From a bacterium (lineage in GTDB: Bacteria; Patescibacteriota; Minisyncoccia; JBBINA01): a stretch of 64,000 nucleotides of DNA. Both the position numbers and the translations under genes were made by a program. Below, one piece after another: positions 4,520-24,930 of the stretch. Numbering within the stretch: the first letter of the stretch is position 1; every line of letters begins with the position of its first letter. The DNA lies in contig JBBINA010000002.1 in assembly GCA_037444125.1 (NCBI GenBank), forward strand, positions 6,272 through 70,271, in the 5' to 3' direction. Under the pieces are notes generated by a model that saw only the letters and a program-made list of their open reading frames with translations, did no database searches and was not told the origin of the DNA.

Positions 4520-7604
<3,085 letters not shown>

Positions 7605-7647
7605 CCTTTTATAGACTAAATCAATTTTTTAAAAAAAATAATCAAAA

Positions 7648-7764
7648 GCCCCTTGGTAACAATACTGAAGAGGAAACGCTCCTTCTCATCCCGAACAGGA
7701 AAGCTAAGCTCTTCAAGGCCGATGATACTCGTTTAACGGGGAAAGTAGGTAATTGCCAAGGGGC
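7648..7764 (+). rRNA. rrf: 5S ribosomal RNA
   Basis: Terminal helix gccccttggtaa...ttgccaaggggc and an internal ccgaacagg...gatgatactcg pattern typical of 5S. Followed by a T-run. Confidence 0.85.
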
Positions 7765-13471: not shown

Positions 13472-13534
13472 TTAAAATTAATTACTGTAAAAATAAAAAA
13501 TCAAAAAAACAATCTTAAAGAAGTAGTTAAATTT

Positions 13535-13786
13535 TTGAAGATAATTTCAGAAGAAAACCGCCTGAAAATTTTGTGCATTTTGCAAAAACAAAAAAAGTGC
13601 GTTTGCGAAATTTGGCAATTTTTAAATTTACCGCAGAACTTAACCTCCCATCATCTTAAAATATTGAAAAACGCCGGTTTAATCAATTTAAAGAAAAAAG
13701 GAACTAGAATTTTTTATTTTTTAAATAAGAAAAACATTAAAAAGTCGATATCTTTATTAAATAAATTTTTAAATAACCAAATATGA
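13535..13786 (+). CDS. arsR: ArsR/SmtB family transcriptional regulator
   Basis: 83 aa. A CVCEIW metal-binding-like segment precedes a winged-HTH pattern (LTSHHLKILKNAGLI). Confidence 0.7.
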   Translation: MKIISEENRLKILCILQKQKKCVCEIWQFLNLPQNLTSHHLKILKNAGLINLKKKGTRIFYFLNKKNIKKSISLLNKFLNNQI

Positions 13787-14022
13787 CTATCAAAATTTTA
13801 GGTTCCGGCTGTCCTAATTGCCAAAAATTAGAAGAAAACGCTAAAAAGGCTATTAAAGAACTAGGATTAAAAGATGTAAAAATTGAACACATCTACGATA
13901 TAAACAAAATAGTGGAAATGGGTATAATGTCCACGCCAGCCTTAGTAGTAAATAATCAAATAAAAATCGCCGGCAGAATTGCCGATGTAGCAGAAATCAA
14001 AGAGTTGCTAAAAAATCTCTAA
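13783..14022 (+). CDS. small thioredoxin-fold redox-active disulfide protein
   Basis: 79 aa with a GSGCPNC CxxC motif. Start overlaps the arsR stop (ATGA). Confidence 0.65.
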   Translation: MTIKILGSGCPNCQKLEENAKKAIKELGLKDVKIEHIYDINKIVEMGIMSTPALVVNNQIKIAGRIADVAEIKELLKNL

Positions 14023-14030
14023 TTCTAATT

Positions 14031-15011
14031 ATGATAAAAGCGCTTGTTGATTATTTAATTTTTCATTTGCTTAATTCCTTTCTTCAAGCTAAAGGAATTT
14101 ACCTTTCTGAACGAACTTTAGACATTATCAACTTCTTTATTTACGATGTTGTTAAAATTGGGCTTTTGCTTTTTATTATCACTTTTTTTGTTTCAATAAT
14201 TAAAGAATATTTAAGGCCGGAAAAAATAAGAAATTTTTTATCAGGTAAAAAATTGGGATTAGGTAATTTTTTGGCCGCTTGCCTTGGAGCCATTACTCCT
14301 TTTTGCACTTGCTCCGCTATCCCTTTGTTTATTGGTTTGACGAAAGCTAATATTCCTTTAGGCGTAACCTTTTCTTTTTTAATTGCTTCTCCTTTGATTA
14401 ATGAGGTAGCAGTAATGCTCCTTTTTGGTCTCTTTGGTTTTAAGTTTGTTTTAGTTTATGTTTTAGCTGGACTTATTGCCGCTGTTTTTGGCGGTTATTT
14501 TATCGGTAGGTTAAAATTAGAAAATCAAATAGAAAAAAGTGTTTTAAATCTCAAAAAAGAAGGTTCTAACCTTTCTTTTATTCCCCAAAAATATTCATTA
14601 GATCGAACAATAAGAATTGGTATAAGTTCGGCAAAACAGATTTTAAGGCAAGTTGGCCCTTATATTCTTATTGGCGTTGGAATTGGCGCTTTTATTCACG
14701 GTTATGTGCCAGCTGATTTTGTTGCAGGTATTACTAAAAAAGCAGGAATTTTAGCTGTCCCTGCTGCGGTGATTATTGGTGTTCCGCTTTATTCTCACAT
14801 TGCTGGCGTTTTGCCAATTGCCCAAGCGCTTTATGAAAAAGGTATGGCTATTGGTACTTTAATGACTTTTATTATGGCAACTGTTGGCCTTTCTTTGCCG
14901 CAAATGATAATTCTGAGTCGTTTAATAAAACTTAAACTTTTAGCTATTTTTGTTTTTACTATCTCAACATTTTTTATCATTTTTGGTTATATTTTCAACT
15001 TAATTTTTTAA
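14031..15011 (+). CDS. ArsP-like permease (DUF318/PF03773 family)
   Basis: Polytopic membrane protein with a TPFCTCSAIPLF motif resembling the ArsP TPFcSCS signature. Confidence 0.6.
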   Translation: MIKALVDYLIFHLLNSFLQAKGIYLSERTLDIINFFIYDVVKIGLLLFIITFFVSIIKEYLRPEKIRNFLSGKKLGLGNFLAACLGAITPFCTCSAIPLFIGLTKANIPLGVTFSFLIASPLINEVAVMLLFGLFGFKFVLVYVLAGLIAAVFGGYFIGRLKLENQIEKSVLNLKKEGSNLSFIPQKYSLDRTIRIGISSAKQILRQVGPYILIGVGIGAFIHGYVPADFVAGITKKAGILAVPAAVIIGVPLYSHIAGVLPIAQALYEKGMAIGTLMTFIMATVGLSLPQMIILSRLIKLKLLAIFVFTISTFFIIFGYIFNLIF

Positions 15012-15057
15012 AAGGTCGACATTTTTTATAATTAATTAAATTTATTAATAAAAATTT

Positions 15058-15324
15058 ATGAAAGTATTAAAATTCGGTGCCGAGTGGTGCTCAGGATGCA
15101 TTGTTATGAGGCCTCGGTGGAAAGAAATTGGAAATTGAAGGTGAGCTACCTTGGTTAAAACAGAATATTATGACTATGACAAAGACAAAGAAATGGTAGA
15201 AAAATACAAAATTGACAAAAATCTACCAACTTTTGTTTTTCTTGATAAAGATGGAAATGAAATCCTACGCCTTCACGGCGAACCATCTAAAGAAGAACTT
15301 TTTGAAAGTTATTGAAGAAAATAA
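15058..15324 (+). pseudogene. thioredoxin (WCSGC) reading frame interrupted by in-frame TGA codons
   Basis: The frame from the ATG gives AEWCSGC...TEYYDYDKDKEMVEKYKIDKNLPTFVFLDKDGNEIL (thioredoxin-like). It contains TGA at 15136 and 15142 and a terminal TGA at 15313. Confidence 0.5.
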
Positions 15325-15338
15325 AGATAAATAAATTT

Positions 15339-15929
15339 ATGTTAAAAAAACAATAATTTTACTTCTGGGGGTTGTTGTTGCTTTTGTTTTTTTCTTCACT
15401 TCAGTCTTTAAAACGGAAAAAAATTTTGCCGAAGAGGTCGAAGAAAAAGTAAATATTTACTTTTTCTGGGGTGAAGGTTGTCCGCATTGCGCTAAAGAAA
15501 AACTTTTTTTAGAAAAACTTGCCAATAAAATACCCACAAGTTAATATTTATGATTTTGAAGTTTGGTATAAAAACGAAAATAGACAATTACTTATTGAAG
15601 TCGGCAAAAAATTAAACGCCACTGTTCCAGGCGTCCCTTTTACAGTTTTTGGGGAAAAATATTTTACTGATTGGTATAACGAACAAAGCACCGGAGCGGC
15701 GATAGAAGATGCGGTAAAATTAGTTTTACAAAAAAGCTCTCGCGATGTGATTGGCGAGTTATTAGCTTTAAAACCGGAAGAGAAGAACTTAGAGGAAAAA
15801 TTTGAAAAAGAGAACAAAAGATCACCAATTCCTCAAAAAATTAAAGTCCCCTTTTTAGGAGAGATTGAAACAAAAAATCTATCTTTACCCGTGCTTGCAG
15901 TTATTTTTGGAAACGTTGGATGGTTTTAA
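15339..15929 (+). pseudogene. membrane-anchored thioredoxin-fold protein (FWGEGCPHC) with homopolymer frameshifts
   Basis: MLKK (frame 0) switches to a TM helix plus CPHC domain (frame +2) at an A7 run (15344-15350). It returns to frame 0 at an A4 run (15527-15530), giving YPQVNIYDFEV...VPGVPFTVFGEKYF. Confidence 0.45.
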
Positions 15930-15939
15930 CCCATGCACT

Positions 15940-16580
15940 ATGTGGGCTTTGCTATTTTTAATTAGCTTGCTTTTGGGAATGAAGGATAAGAAAAGAATGT
16001 GAATTTTGGGAAGCGCCTTTATTATTGCTTCAGCCTCTGTTTATTTTCTTTTTATGGCTGCTTGACTCAACCTTCTTTTATTTATAGGTTTTATTGTCTG
16101 GATAAGAGTAGCAATCGGCTTACTAGCTTTAGGTGGCGGCATTTATAATCTACGCGAATTTTTTATTAATAAAACAAGCGGTTGCAAAGTGACCGGTGAA
16201 AAAAGCGACAAAAAGTTTTTGAAAAACTAAAATCGATTACCCAAAAACAACAATTTTTGCTGGCTTTAGTTGGAATAATAATTTTAGCTGGAGCAGTAAA
16301 CCTGGTCGAACTGATTTGTTCAGCGGGCTTACCAGTGGTATTTATACAGATTTTAACTTTAAGTAGTTTGGCAAAATGGCAGTATTATCTTTATATGCTA
16401 ATTTATATTTTTGTTTTTATGTTAGACGGCTTGTTTGTCTTTTTTGCCGCTATGATAACCTTACAAATGACTGGCATCACCACAAAATATACTCGTTTTT
16501 CTCATCTTATTGGCGGAATTTTAATGTTGATTATAAGAATTTTGCTTATCTTAAAACCAGAATGGTTAATGTTTGGATAA
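15940..16580 (+). pseudogene. CcdA/DsbD-like disulfide-reductant membrane domain (WFNPCTMWALL and ELICSAGLPVVF Cys motifs), disrupted
   Basis: In-frame TGA at 16000 and 16063. Frameshift in an A-run near 16209-16214. Likely originally fused to the upstream thioredoxin-fold ORF through a T4-run frameshift at 15924-15927. Confidence 0.4.
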
Positions 16581-17192
16581 GTATTATAATAATATATCGT
16601 ATTTTGCGAAACCTTAAATTTATTTTTATTGAACAACAATATTTTGAGAGATGATTAGTTTTTGTTCCATTGGTTCTTCGCCTCCAGGTTCCGTTACTTT
16701 TTCATACACATTCACAACATAATTACCTGAAGGAATATTTTGAAGTTTAGCTTCTATTTTAGAAAAGCATCTACATTTACAACCAATACCACTCCACACC
16801 TCATAAATGTTTCTAACTGAATTTGCTTTTCAATCAGCTTTTCTACAGCAAAGATGGTTTATTGCCCTTAAATATAAAACTTCATTTCCTATGTTTGGTC
16901 CTTCTCAGTTTCTTTACCAAAAGATAAAGATTTAGTGACCATCCCTTTGTCAGTTTTAGCACAACCTTTTACTAAAGAAGAAAGAGTAATATTTGAAGAT
17001 TTGATGATGATAATGTTGTTAGTTTTTTTAGGAATTATCCTAAAGATAGATTCCAACTATCCCAATGATTAAGAAGACAAAAACTAATGAAACTATTATT
17101 TTTTTTGTTCATAATAAAGCAAATTTTATTTGGAGATTTTAATCTCCATAGTAGGTCCTTCAATATTTAAAAATTTTAAGTCATCGTATTTA

Positions 17193-18617
17193 CTAACCAT
17201 TTTTTAAACTCTCATAAATTAAATTATCAATTTCTTCTCGCAATTTTTTGATTTGTTCTTTGTATTGATTACTTTTTTCTTCCCGTTGCTGTATTTCTAA
17301 AACAATTTTTTGTTGAGTTTTTTTATCAATTGCCGGAATAGGGAGTTTTCTAATAGACCAGTTTGTAATTTCCTTTTGGCTTTTACCAGTTGAAAAAGCC
17401 CAGAAGAAATCTGAACCAAAAGAAGATTGTAAATAGTATTTTAGAAAAAGGGCATCATCTAAATTATTGAACTCTATAACCGCAAGGTGGTGAGACGGAA
17501 TAAATATTCGTTCATCATTGGTGTCTTTATTAAAAATAATACATTTTCCAATTGTACCAGAGCGGGTCAAGATTAAATTATTCTCATTTATTGCAATGTT
17601 TTTATATTGTTCTCCTATAACATCTTGTAAGAAAATTGGTTCTTCTAAATTCAATTCGTTTGAGGAAATATTATTGACTCTTAAATATACAAAATTTGTA
17701 TCATAAGAAGAATAATATTTCTTTGGGATATACTCTCCACTTCTAATTTTTTTAACATATTTAGTAAAAGGTATGTAATTTCCTTTTAAATTTTCTTTTA
17801 CAAATATAGGCAATTCATCCTCAATAAATCTACAAAGGTAAGTTCTAATACTTAACCAGTTTGATTTAGATATATTTTTAAAATTATTTTTCAAATTGTA
17901 TTCTTCATCTCTTTTTAGTTTTGGTCTTGTTGAATATCCATTCTTAACAAAAACATCATCAATGATATCTTGAATAGATTCAATTTTTTTCTTAGTAGAT
18001 CGAATTTTGTTTTCTATTTCTTCTATTTTTTTAACTATTGTTATTTGCTTTTGATAATTGATAAATGGAACTTTCATTGCAAGAAAATCTGGTATGTGTA
18101 TTCGTGGATGAGTTTTCCCTGATGTTAAAAGTTCTAAATCACTTCTAAAACTTTTATGAAGAAGCAAATACATTAGAAATTTGATGTCCCAACTTCTGCT
18201 TTTTAATCTATAACCAATTAGTTCTGTAGTTCCTATAATTTTTTTTGCTTTATCATTTAAAAAGCAGTGGCCTTTTTCAGGGGTGAGTTTTGAATATACA
18301 ATATCAGCATCATTGAAAAAGGTTTTGTCAGATCCTATCTCTGCAACCACAATCTCATTTTTTATAGCACCAAATCCAGGTTCAATGTCATCTAAATCGG
18401 CTAAAATCATTTCTTCTTCTAATTCACCCTTTTTTATTGTTGTAGTATTAGCAAGGTCTAAAATCTTACCTAACGGCATACCTGTTTTTCTGCTCTTTTT
18501 TAATAATTCAGTAATATTATTTTTTTCATCTTTAAAATATCTGTACTTAGAATCTAGACGTAATTGTTTTTGAAGTCCTATTTTAAAAAAGTTTGTACTA
18601 AAAATTATCTGTTCCAT
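17193..18617 (-). CDS. hsdS: restriction-modification specificity subunit (HsdS-like, two target-recognition domains)
   Basis: 474 aa. Conserved central and C-terminal coiled-coil repeats are typical of HsdS. Overlaps the MTase gene by 13 nt. Confidence 0.75.
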   Translation of the reverse strand: MEQIIFSTNFFKIGLQKQLRLDSKYRYFKDEKNNITELLKKSRKTGMPLGKILDLANTTTIKKGELEEEMILADLDDIEPGFGAIKNEIVVAEIGSDKTFFNDADIVYSKLTPEKGHCFLNDKAKKIIGTTELIGYRLKSRSWDIKFLMYLLLHKSFRSDLELLTSGKTHPRIHIPDFLAMKVPFINYQKQITIVKKIEEIENKIRSTKKKIESIQDIIDDVFVKNGYSTRPKLKRDEEYNLKNNFKNISKSNWLSIRTYLCRFIEDELPIFVKENLKGNYIPFTKYVKKIRSGEYIPKKYYSSYDTNFVYLRVNNISSNELNLEEPIFLQDVIGEQYKNIAINENNLILTRSGTIGKCIIFNKDTNDERIFIPSHHLAVIEFNNLDDALFLKYYLQSSFGSDFFWAFSTGKSQKEITNWSIRKLPIPAIDKKTQQKIVLEIQQREEKSNQYKEQIKKLREEIDNLIYESLKNG

Positions 18618-20971
18618 TTTACATATTTTCTTAAATAATCCAAAATAGTTTTTGGATTATTAGTATCGATATAAATTATTCTGTCTGAATACTCTCCTTC
18701 CGAATTAAAAAGTTGATTAGGACGTTTTTCTTCTTTGCGAACCCCTCGCTTATAGCCAATTTCTTCAGCGTGAGCCATAAATATAGGGTAGTCCTGCTCT
18801 TTAGATACATTTTTAAACACCCACCATTCAAGATCGGCTTCTTGTATATTTTCTTCATATTTCTCTTTAAGTTCTTTAAATGATAGTTTTTTATCTTCAG
18901 GGTCAAAATTTTCTTCTCCTAAAAGTTGAATTAAAAGTTCTATAAATTTCTTTTTATTTTCTTCCTTCTCTGATTTTAATAATTTTTTTATTTCAGAAAT
19001 CAGTTCTTTGTATTCATCTTCGTACTTTGACCATAACTTATTCCACTCTTCTACCTCTTCTTTGGTTTTCTTTTGCGCGAAAAGCAAGCTCGTTTTTGTT
19101 TGAGTATAAGGTGCGAAAGCTAAATGAGGTAATGAAACAACCGCTTTAATCCAAAAATATTTATAAAGGAAGAGCCGGATATCTCTATTGCTGGTTGTAT
19201 CAAAAACGCTTTCGGGGAGAACAACGCCCATTCGCCCGCCTTCTCTCAATAATTGATACCACCTTTCTATAAAAAGATTTTCTGTATCAACTTCCAATTC
19301 TTTGTTATTTTTAAGAGTCTTTGCTATTTTTTCTCCTCTCAAATAAAGCCTTGGAAACTGCTTAGCTGTATCTCTGTCTACGGTCACACTAAATGGTGGA
19401 TTAGAAACTACTACATCAAATTGTTCGTTTACAGGAAATGAATAAACTTTGCTTTCATGTTTTTCTGCTAATTTTCTGTGATAATTACTAAAATCAATTA
19501 AACCGTCGGCAGGCTCAATATTTGCGGAACCATCGCCATGGCCAACCATATTTACTTTTGAAGCCATCGCCAAATCAGAATTTATTTCAATACCATAAAT
19601 ATATTCGTCTGCCCAGGCATTTTTGCGCAATCTTTGAAAATTTTTGTCTAAAAATTCTTGTGTTGCGTAATCTTTTTTGATTTTGCCCTCCTTTTCTGCT
19701 TCCTCCTTAACTTTATCAATTAGTTTCATCGCGTGAATTAAAAATGTCCCAGAACCGCATGCAGGATCAATAATATAAGGCAATCTCGTTTCATTGTTTA
19801 TTAAGTTTAAAGTTAATTCATCTAATCTTAGAGCATACAGGATAAAATCAACTATATTCGGATGTGTAAGATATTGTCCTTTTGTTTGTTTTAGTTCTTG
19901 CCTAACAATTTTCTCAAAGAAATCACCGAGAACATCATACTTATTTTGTAAGAAAGATATGTCTTGCAGCACCTCAACAACATATTTTACTTTTGGGGCA
20001 TCAAAAATTATGTCTTTTACCTTCTCTAAATCTTCATCTTTATAATTTAATAATCGTTTTAATGCACAATCTTTATATTTTCCAGTTTTAGAATCTTTCT
20101 CGCCTTTATAAAGCTTGTTAATTCTTTTATAGGTTTTTTCTGGGGGTTCTTGGTCTAATCCTTCAAAGAAAATTTGAAATTGGTAAGGTTCGCCTTCTGG
20201 CGTTGTTTTCTCGTCGTAAATTTTTGCCAAAAACATCCCGATTAAATTAAAGAAAAGCTCGTTTTGATACTTACCCCCACCCCATAAAATATTGTGGAGT
20301 TCTCTTGCAATCCTATCTAATTCTTCCTTTTTTACATCTAATCTTAAATCTTTTTCTCCTCCTTTTATAAATGCCGGCGGCTTATCTTTAATTTCATAAT
20401 TTTTTGGAATATATCTTAAATTAGGACGACCAGCAGCCTCCCAATCATCAAAAGATTTAAATTTTGTGTAATCTATTGTCTCGTATTTTTCTTGTAATTT
20501 GCCATCATCGTCATACCAACGAGTGTAATAAATAAGAAATTTTAAAGTTCCTTTACCCTTATCTTCTGTAGCAGCAGGTTCAAAAAGTTGGGTTTTAATT
20601 GAAGATTCAAAATATCTTTCGTAATCATCTCGGGGCTTTAACTCAAAAAGCATAAATGGATTATGGTTCTCATTATAAACAACGATATCCATTTTAATAT
20701 CTGTTCTTTTGTGAGGATGCCCGATCTTTCGATATTTCTCTAATTCAATTTTATCTGGTCTGTAGTTATACTTTTCTATTAAATCTACATACAGTTCTGC
20801 TCTAACTTGCTCCTCCGGATCTAAAAAATTATCGGTATACCCTTGGGCTAAATAAGTAATTTTGAAACCATCGTGACTAATCAAAATATAACCCTTTTCT
20901 TCCCCGAGCTTAACTAAGAAAGATTTTTCACCAGTAATAATTTCTTCTTTTTGTGGTTTGTATTGTGCCAT
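18605..20971 (-). CDS. N6-adenine DNA methyltransferase (gamma class) with N-terminal PD-(D/E)xK nuclease-like domain
   Basis: Motif I DPACGSGTFL and motif IV NPPF are present. The N-terminus has a D-x13-ELK pattern (MDIVVYNENHNPFMLFELKP). 788 aa is larger than a typical HsdM. Confidence 0.7.
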   Translation of the reverse strand: MAQYKPQKEEIITGEKSFLVKLGEEKGYILISHDGFKITYLAQGYTDNFLDPEEQVRAELYVDLIEKYNYRPDKIELEKYRKIGHPHKRTDIKMDIVVYNENHNPFMLFELKPRDDYERYFESSIKTQLFEPAATEDKGKGTLKFLIYYTRWYDDDGKLQEKYETIDYTKFKSFDDWEAAGRPNLRYIPKNYEIKDKPPAFIKGGEKDLRLDVKKEELDRIARELHNILWGGGKYQNELFFNLIGMFLAKIYDEKTTPEGEPYQFQIFFEGLDQEPPEKTYKRINKLYKGEKDSKTGKYKDCALKRLLNYKDEDLEKVKDIIFDAPKVKYVVEVLQDISFLQNKYDVLGDFFEKIVRQELKQTKGQYLTHPNIVDFILYALRLDELTLNLINNETRLPYIIDPACGSGTFLIHAMKLIDKVKEEAEKEGKIKKDYATQEFLDKNFQRLRKNAWADEYIYGIEINSDLAMASKVNMVGHGDGSANIEPADGLIDFSNYHRKLAEKHESKVYSFPVNEQFDVVVSNPPFSVTVDRDTAKQFPRLYLRGEKIAKTLKNNKELEVDTENLFIERWYQLLREGGRMGVVLPESVFDTTSNRDIRLFLYKYFWIKAVVSLPHLAFAPYTQTKTSLLFAQKKTKEEVEEWNKLWSKYEDEYKELISEIKKLLKSEKEENKKKFIELLIQLLGEENFDPEDKKLSFKELKEKYEENIQEADLEWWVFKNVSKEQDYPIFMAHAEEIGYKRGVRKEEKRPNQLFNSEGEYSDRIIYIDTNNPKTILDYLRKYVKWNR

Positions 20972-23347: not shown

Positions 23348-24848
23348 GAAAGGAGGTGATCCATCGCCAGCTTCCGCTAGCGATGCCTTGTTACGACTTA
23401 TCCCCTATCACCGGGCCCACCATCATCCCGCAGAAAACGGTCTTTCCGGTGTTCCCAGCTCTCTTGGATTGACGGGCGGTGAGTACAAAGCTCGAGAACG
23501 TATTCACCGCGGCATTCTGATCCGCGATTACTAGCGATTCCAGCTTCATGAGGTCGAGTTGCAGACCTCAATCCGAACTAAGGAATGTTTTTTGGGATTA
23601 GCTCCGCCTCACGACTTCGCAGCCCTTTGTACATTCCATTGTATCGCCTGTGCAGCCCAGGTCATAAGGGCCATGCGGATTTGACGTCATCCCCTCCTTC
23701 CTCCTGGTTAACCCAGGCAGTCTCCCTAGACATCTAAAACTAAGGATGGGGGTTGCGCTCGTTACCCGACTTAACGGAACACCTCAAGGCACGAGCTGAC
23801 GACAACCATGCAACACCTCGCCATGATGTCCTTGCGGAAATCTAACTTTCGTCAGATTATCACCATGACATTCCAGACCTGGTAAGGTTTATCGGTTACC
23901 GTCGAATTAAGCCAGACGATCCACCGCTTGTGCGAGCTCCCGTCTATTCCTTTGAGTTTCGGCCTTGCGGCTGTACTACCCAGGCGGGAGACTTAACGCG
24001 TTAGCTTCGCCGCTGAAAGGGTCGACACTTCCAACGACTAGTCTCCATGGTTTAGGGCGTGGAATACAAGGGTATCTAATCCTTTTTTATGCCCACGCTT
24101 TCGTCCATGACTGTCAGGTGGCACCTAGTGAGTTGTTTTCACCTTTGGCGTTCCCCTGGGTATCAACGGATTTCACCCCTACTCCCAGAGTTCCACTCAC
24201 CCCTTTGCCCCTCTAGAAATACCGTTTGAGAAGCAGCTTAAAACTAAAGTCTTAAGATTTAACTCCTCACAAGTATTTCCAGCTGCGGACGCTTTACGCC
24301 CAGTAAATCCGGACAACGCTTGAGGTCTCTGTATTACCGCTGCTGCTGGCACAGAGTTAGCAACCTCTTATTCCTGAAGTACCGTCATTCCGAACTTGCG
24401 TTCGGAATTCTTCCCTCAGAAAAGCAGTTTACACCCCGAAGGGCTTCTTCCTGCACGCGGCGTCACTCGGTCACCCTTTCGGGCATTGCCGAATATTCTC
24501 GACTGCTGCGACCCGTAGGCCTCCGGGCAGTGTCTCAGTCCCGGTGTTGGGGAACAGCCTCTCAGCCCCCCTACCCGTCATAGGCTTGGTGAGCCGTTAC
24601 CTCACCAACTACCTGATAGGCCGCAGGCCCCTCTTGAAGCGGATTGCTCCTTTAATGAAAACCGGAATTAACCGATTCTCATACCATCTTGTATTAGCCC
24701 CAGTTTCCCGGGGTTATTCAAAACTTCAAGGTAGGTACCTACGTGTTACTAACCCGTTCGCCACTATGCGCGCTCAACACGCGCATCGTACGACTTGCAT
24801 GCCTTATCCACGCCGCCAGCGTTCGTCCTGAGCCAGGATCAAACTCTC
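23348..24848 (-). rRNA. rrs: 16S ribosomal RNA
   Basis: Reverse complement begins agagtttgatcctggctcag and ends ggatcacctcctttc. Universal blocks are present (gtgccagcagccgcggtaatac-like, 1492r region). Length is about 1501 nt. Confidence 0.95.
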
Positions 24849-24930
24849 TTATAAAAGTAGCATAAATATTCGTCTGTGGAACTTAAAATAAGTATAAACT
24901 AGCCAAATTTCAAAAGAACTTTTATTTAAA

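Follow-up and report, generated by a model that had tools for sequence, protein, structure and literature searches.

Recent pseudogene formation as the likely origin of a redox gene block with TGA codons in an AT-rich, standard-code bacterium

When recognizable genes are interrupted by TGA codons and frameshifts at close intervals, their state could reflect sense codons brought in from an organism with another genetic code, a regulatory device, an error of sequencing, or decay. Which of these applies is the question raised by positions 15058-16580 of a 64,000-nucleotide stretch of contig JBBINA010000002.1 (assembly GCA_037444125.1); the whole stretch is referred to here as the window. An initial annotation had reported broken redox genes with WCSGC, CPHC, FNPC and ELICSAGLP motifs in this segment, which our alignments bore out, and had considered both a decaying pseudogene block and DNA from a UGA-recoding donor. 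We found it highly probable that positions 15058-17112 contain three genuine, fairly recent pseudogenes, and that the bacterium uses the standard code, is AT-rich (33% GC) and probably belongs to the Patescibacteria (CPR). The TGA codons in the block are stops, not sense codons.

The window was densely coding. It contained 47 ORFs, nearly all of at least 100 aa, with a total of 52.6 kb, as well as unlinked rRNA genes, namely 23S and 5S (plus strand, 4528-7761) and 16S (minus strand, 23349-24854). In the 47 intact ORFs there were 183 TGG codons and no internal stop codons (TGA included), and the ORFs terminated with TAA in 27 cases, TAG in 11 and TGA in 9. Since TGA is used as a stop and TGG as Trp in these genes, the host uses the standard code, in agreement with what had been proposed from the first reading of the sequence. 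Within the window, a single stretch of over 400 nt, 15012-17192 (2181 nt), had neither an intact ORF nor an RNA gene, and because of this uniqueness the broken stretch exceeds chance. Its base composition was that of its surroundings: GC content at 15058-16580 was 33.2% versus a window mean of 33.1%, and not the elevated 38-40% that had been reported.

The broken thioredoxin gene, together with a gene for a membrane protein designated here gene B, closes a locus that starts with genes for an ArsR-family regulator, a small Thioredoxin_3 protein and an ArsP-family permease (Table 1). The first three genes are still open. The ArsR ORF was open, but its homologous N-terminus was found to be without a canonical start codon; homology extended 5' of the TTG at 13535 as far as a stop codon, and this extension contained no ATG, GTG or TTG. 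An identical gene order (ArsR, Trx_3, ArsP, Trx, gene B), with all genes intact, was observed in locus L018, and a 90-aa thioredoxin orthologue was located directly 5' of gene B in approximately half of 80 related loci. In the closest relative, L005, the thioredoxin partner was likewise decayed.

Table 1. Coordinates of the genes of the locus, the probable pseudogenes and their individual lesions. Positions are those of the window; L numbers denote loci used for comparison.
Feature	Position	Strand	Basis or detail
ArsR-family regulator, gene 1 of the locus	13535-13786	+	Pfam HTH_5, E=7.8e-16
Small Thioredoxin_3 protein with CPNC motif, intact	13783-14022	+	Pfam PF13192, E=4.7e-25, full-length
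ArsP_1-family permease, intact	14031-15011	+	Pfam PF03773, E=7.7e-65, profile 5-293 of 294
Pseudogene of 90-aa cytoplasmic-type thioredoxin with WCSGC motif	15058-15334	+	Three edits give a perfect 90-codon ORF
7-bp tandem duplication GAAATTG/GAAATTG, +1 frame	15124-15137	+	7-nt gap in L002, DNA alignment
TGA triplets at 15136 and 15142, out of frame	15136-15144	+	Frame 2 reads KKLEIEGELPWLK; repaired ORF
1-nt deletion, TGG TT^AAAA, restoring the original frame	15155-15160	+	DNA alignment; repair test
T5 run with one T too many, +1 frameshift 11 codons before the natural stop	15299-15303	+	Translation of frames 1 and 2
Gene B, pseudogene of ~410-aa membrane protein	15339-16580	+	N-terminal TM helix, extracytoplasmic CPHC thioredoxin fold, 6-helix domain
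1-nt deletion between ATG and the end of A7, codons 2-4	15342-15350	+	ATG TTA AAA AAA CAA TAA versus ATG AAT AAA AAA ACA in L001 and L002
1-nt insertion, AAA to AAAA, in ...LANK/YPQV...	15527-15530	+	Alignment to orthologues
1-nt insertion at the VIFG / LDGFNPC junction	15912-15915	+	AACG versus one Gly/Ala codon in orthologues; alignment
TGA nonsense codon for Trp TGG	16000-16002	+	W in 84/84 related loci; TGG in L001 and L002
TGA nonsense codon for Trp TGG	16063-16065	+	W in 84/84 related loci; TGG in L001 and L002
1-nt deletion in GGT GAA (G)AA AAG CGA, VTG-[DE]-EKRQ	16199-16204	+	Alignment to orthologues
Third pseudogene, ~163-aa Cys-rich hypothetical-protein family, N-terminal TM helix	17112 (start) to 16626 (stop)	-	Best homologue 72% identity, E=1e-48
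A7 to A8 insertion right after the third-gene start	17106-17099	-	Alignment, three-frame map
TGG to TAG at a Trp column of the third pseudogene	17042-17040	-	Alignment, three-frame map

After the thioredoxin gene was repaired by the three edits, its product matched the Pfam Thioredoxin family (PF00085) with 39.2 bits (E=7.5e-10; the gathering cut-off is 23.5), retained the WCSGC motif and showed 65-75% identity to its orthologues. The repaired ORF reads MKVLKFGAEWCSGCIVMRPRWKEIEGELPWxKTEYYDYD...EELLKVIEENKDK and then stops, and it was the removal of one T from the T5 run that returned this conserved C-terminus. Deletion of one copy of the 7-bp duplication gave RWKEIEGELPWLKTE, which matched the L012 orthologue exactly over that segment. 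The “EIGNGRGATLVK” reading, which had been offered as a plausible recoded peptide, is the out-of-frame product of this duplication. Similarly, the four TGA codons reported as in-frame are all present in the DNA, and those at 16000 and 16063 in gene B are true in-frame nonsense codons; the pair at 15136 and 15142 is duplication-shifted and, since it is situated between the 7-bp duplication and the compensating 1-nt deletion, these triplets were never codons.

Three genes had been recognized in 15058-16580, with the CPHC and polytopic membrane domains counted separately. Our analysis of homologues reduced this number to two. The repaired gene B product (412 aa) had more than 4600 matching proteins, the best of which was 78% identical over 100% of its length. 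The homologues were single proteins of 398-416 aa (most of those listed had approximately 400-410 aa) and, where the source was named, nearly all came from Patescibacteria. As each homologue is encoded by one ORF, we assign both domains to one and the same protein. Its N-terminal domain was found to have a thioredoxin fold with a CxxC motif, and conserved Cys residues are predicted to be in helices 1 and 4 of the 6-helix domain. We mapped the lesions by aligning DNA and protein sequences with those of intact orthologues, and for the thioredoxin gene and gene B together this gave seven frame-disrupting indels and two nonsense codons, i.e., nine lesions in 1.52 kb. Four frameshifts had been noted previously; the three in the thioredoxin gene had gone unnoticed, and two of the others were relocated by alignment, from a T4 run at 15924 to 15912-15915 and from the vicinity of 16209 to 16199-16204.

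A third pseudogene, on the minus strand, falls beyond the 15058-16580 segment that had drawn attention. It belongs to a family of Cys-rich hypothetical proteins whose named members were from DPANN archaea and Patescibacteria. Besides the A8 insertion and the TAG codon listed in Table 1, it had at least four further frameshifts as well as in-frame deletions, which brings the gene to at least five indels and at least six lesions overall. The TGA triplets at 16907 and 16832 were frameshift by-products and did not coincide with Trp or Gly columns. We also considered the minus-strand region 17198-16626 as one ORF with UGA read as Trp (code 4); this candidate was rejected, as its frame mixes TAA, TAG and TGA stops. 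We also asked whether the ~163-aa family might be a partner of the redox pair by synteny, or its substrate; neither the two genomic contexts inspected nor the 84 related loci showed any linkage.

Are these lesions present in the organism, or were they introduced by sequencing or assembly, for example by homopolymer miscalls or in a low-coverage patch, with the genes themselves intact? Most of the 1-nt indels are indeed located in or beside short A/T runs. Against such an origin, the Logan contig SRR11582170_3118 (L085, 3527 nt) aligned to window positions 13713-17239 with no gaps and 2 mismatches, and all indels and both gene-B TGA codons were common to the window and this independently built assembly, which may share the window's sample and hence perhaps represents the same population. 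Both mismatches were within the dead thioredoxin gene. One, G-to-T at 15259, changes GAA to TAA and adds one more stop; the other, C-to-A at 15274, replaces His with Asn, a residue found in several orthologues including that of L002. Look-ups with exact proteins returned this contig as the only other one, or none. In addition, the other ORFs (52.6 kb) contain 4034 homopolymer runs of at least 3 nt, 113 of them of at least 7 nt, and show no comparable gap. The 7-bp duplication, the three G-to-A nonsense changes and the in-frame 9-nt deletions are atypical of homopolymer miscalls, and the repaired protein has replacements at otherwise invariant columns. These comparisons argue indirectly for genuine lesions rather than an assembly artefact, and we regard a sequencing or assembly origin as very unlikely. 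The same data bear on the idea, raised initially as slipped-strand regulation, that the genes remain functional through phase variation, programmed frameshifting or stop read-through. The A7 tract that follows the gene B start codon and the A8 tract at the corresponding place in the third gene are where such a switch could be situated, and the intact orthologues share this A7 tract and have it in frame. In the thioredoxin gene and gene B, where A7 is the longest tract, nine or more separate lesions would have to be corrected, among them the 7-bp duplication, which would have to be lost, and two stops, which would have to be read through. None of the three ORFs was restored by any single tract change, and the variant Logan contig has a further stop codon. 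We give almost no weight to continued function of this kind.

The proposal that the block was acquired from a donor reading UGA as Trp (code 4) or Gly (code 25), with TGA codons that once were sense codons, draws on a more specific coincidence: both gene-B TGA codons are exactly at conserved Trp columns, and distant homologues occur in Bacilli and 'Tenericutes' MAGs. This is also the likeness to known UGA-recoded lineages (code 25 in Gracilibacteria/Absconditabacteria; code 4 in Mollicutes and some reduced symbionts), in that two TGA codons correspond to Trp in relatives. However, TGG was found at both columns, and no internal stop (translation table 11), in 84 of the 84 related loci, and this conservation extended to the MAGs of Bacilli and 'Tenericutes', which were 42-49% identical. 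The relatives nearest in sequence, at 77-78% identity, were Patescibacteria that use the standard code; they have TGG at the two sites, and the gene order of the locus agrees with theirs. A scan of genome contigs revealed nothing closer than 78% identity; of two metagenome DNA scans, one was without matches and the other contained one 77%-identical relative. In contrast to the recoded lineages, the intact genes of the window stop at TGA and use TGG for Trp, no relative has TGA at the two sites, and the TGA triplets of the block other than 16000 and 16063, including the out-of-frame pair in the thioredoxin gene, are frameshift by-products. In the third pseudogene a Trp column is occupied by TAG, the TGA triplets are off the Trp and Gly columns, and the local GC content matches the background. 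The Trp columns themselves have an ordinary explanation, as Trp codons are the chief target of G-to-A nonsense mutation. A mutation spectrum biased from G:C to A:T is established for bacteria. In gene B, TGG codons were the origin of 60-67% of the G:C-to-A:T transition paths to a stop, and of only approximately 10% of all single-base paths to a stop. All three nonsense substitutions (two in gene B and one in the third pseudogene) occurred at Trp codons, as the biased spectrum predicts. We therefore consider the recoded donor exceedingly improbable. Of the explanations considered at the outset, the decaying pseudogene block is the one that the nine lesions in two genes, relative to intact orthologues, favor.

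The pseudogenes appear to have lost function fairly recently. Pairwise dN/dS of gene B versus its relatives was 0.08-0.14 and did not differ from that between intact relatives; dS was about 1, a saturated value that makes the comparison uninformative with regard to relaxed selection. We infer from the low ratio that most of the divergence arose under selection, and therefore that inactivation was recent compared with the split from any sampled relative. The repaired gene B product was changed at 4 of the 58 columns that were invariant in 100 homologues (G111D, T336I, D364G and G400R); in the other sequences the median number of deviations at these 58 columns was 0, and the highest number was 3. 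Judged from the aligned sequences, relaxed selection would thus show solely as a small excess of changes at invariant columns.

The sequence of events may have been a simple one. The pathway would no longer have been needed, or a first hit would have been taken, after which ordinary spontaneous lesions would have piled up. The lesions observed are short indels of the slippage type, the 7-bp tandem duplication and G-to-A transitions from TGG to TGA or TAG. The genome may have an intact second copy elsewhere. We consider the block an already known, ordinary kind of pseudogene block. With the ordinary gene decay of host-restricted and reduced bacterial genomes it shares several independent lesions in adjacent, functionally linked genes, indels at short homopolymers and nonsense codons at TGG, approximately 78% identity to intact orthologues, and polymorphism concentrated in a dead gene. 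It differs from that pattern in that the surrounding window is streamlined and densely coding, and that three neighboring genes were hit, whereas genes 1-3 of the locus are open. Literature searches yielded nothing that deals specifically with the gene B family or with blocks of pseudogenes in bacteria of this kind.

What the genes did before they decayed can be proposed from their arrangement. The thioredoxin and gene B products would have been a co-functional pair, in which electrons would have moved from the small thioredoxin to the membrane cysteines of gene B and then to the external CPHC domain, following the logic of DsbD/CcdA. As a dedicated small thioredoxin is encoded directly upstream of gene B, a link that is one of genomic position only, DsbD/CcdA-like transfer of reductant across the membrane would be the simplest mechanism by analogy. 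Assignment of the gene B membrane domain to DsbD/CcdA by sequence was rejected: neither the full-length protein nor its TM part matched Pfam DsbD (PF02683) or DsbD_2 (PF13386) at E values up to 10, the membrane domain had no NCBIfam match, a profile sequence search of the PDB with gene B gave no CcdA or DsbD chain, and hhalign comparison with E. coli DsbD gave a probability of 0.6%. In a structural comparison that used a low-confidence model, the predicted match to the DsbD/CcdA fold ranked 15th among generic helical matches; the domain may have a six-helix (3+3) core. More generally, the membrane domain matched no sequence family in Pfam, NCBIfam or the PDB. Gene B is also unlike DsbD/CcdA in that its Trx domain precedes the membrane domain and that a third invariant Cys is present in a predicted cytoplasmic loop. 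The module consists of a dedicated 90-aa thioredoxin and a protein with an anchor, a CPHC Trx fold, six helices and buried Cys residues. One possible reading, which we hold tentatively and with somewhat less than even credence, is that the decayed pair represents a very widespread unclassified module, mainly of Patescibacteria and perhaps a highly divergent or new branch of CcdA-like electron transporters of the envelope, and that the window and L005 catch its loss in one lineage.

These results remove a false lead: neither a change of genetic code nor recoded foreign DNA is present at 15058-16580. They also exemplify the way in which a frameshift can give the appearance of in-frame TGA codons. 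Besides, the block offers a limited view of the spectrum of spontaneous mutations in an uncultivated, streamlined bacterium. A side observation is possibly more useful, namely the intact gene B family, which has thousands of members, mostly in Patescibacteria, an unclassified membrane domain and a small thioredoxin of its own as a consistent partner.

Intact gene B (the membrane-anchored CPHC thioredoxin-fold protein whose pseudogene lies in the window) was a member of a very large family, with more than 4600 matches at E<1e-5. Named members were mostly from Patescibacteria, and distant ones were found in Bacilli MAGs. Invariant Cys residues of the family were located at CPHC, GFNPC, SGCKV and ELICSAG, and the six-helix membrane domain had no match in Pfam, NCBIfam or PDB sequences. 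A dedicated 90-aa thioredoxin was encoded directly upstream of gene B in approximately half of the related loci. The closest relative among the genome contigs searched was the WWE3 locus L005 (PCQY01000022), in which gene B was intact and the upstream thioredoxin partner was decayed too, having lost a large internal segment and undergone frame changes (translation: MRILKFGAVWCSGCLVMKK...DKEGKEILRLNGEPSKEELLKVIEENKDK*). Restriction-modification genes flanked the thioredoxin/gene B pair in this locus. A restriction-modification pair adjoined the pseudogene block of the window; its N6-methyltransferase was a 788-aa protein with an HSDR_N_2 domain, and the two genes of the pair overlapped by 13 nt.

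Coordinates of features in the window and in the WWE3 locus L005
Feature	Location	Strand	Description
23S and 5S rRNA	window 4528-7761	plus	
ArsR N-terminal region without canonical start	window 13475-13540		homology to orthologue N-termini
Third pseudogene	window 16626-17112	minus	decayed member of ~163-aa Cys-rich hypothetical-protein family, N-terminal TM helix
Restriction-modification pair	window 17193-20971	minus	specificity subunit (Methylase_S) and N6-methyltransferase
16S rRNA	window 23349-24854	minus	
Decayed thioredoxin partner, upstream of gene B	L005:3430-3620		candidate division WWE3 MAG PCQY01000022

The third pseudogene of the block was located beyond the coordinates given in the initial annotation. 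Named members of its family were from DPANN archaea (Aenigmarchaeota and Micrarchaeota) and Patescibacteria, and the pseudogene had no match among Pfam or NCBIfam models. The reading frame of the ArsR regulator was homologous to the N-termini of its orthologues 5' of the TTG at 13535, its earliest canonical start codon, and no ATG, GTG or TTG was present between the preceding stop and that codon. The gene may therefore have lost its start codon, may use a non-canonical start, or may encode a regulator truncated by ~18 residues. Elsewhere in the window, the rRNA genes were unlinked, with 16S ~15.6 kb from 23S/5S and on the opposite strand. The 23S match was 3070 nt long versus a model of 2925 positions, so an insertion may be present inside this gene.

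Comparison of the window with L085, a Logan contig from SRR11582170, revealed only two differences over 3.5 kb (15259 and 15274), one of which created an additional stop codon. Both were located in the dead thioredoxin gene upstream of gene B, and this confinement fits neutral polymorphism of a pseudogene.
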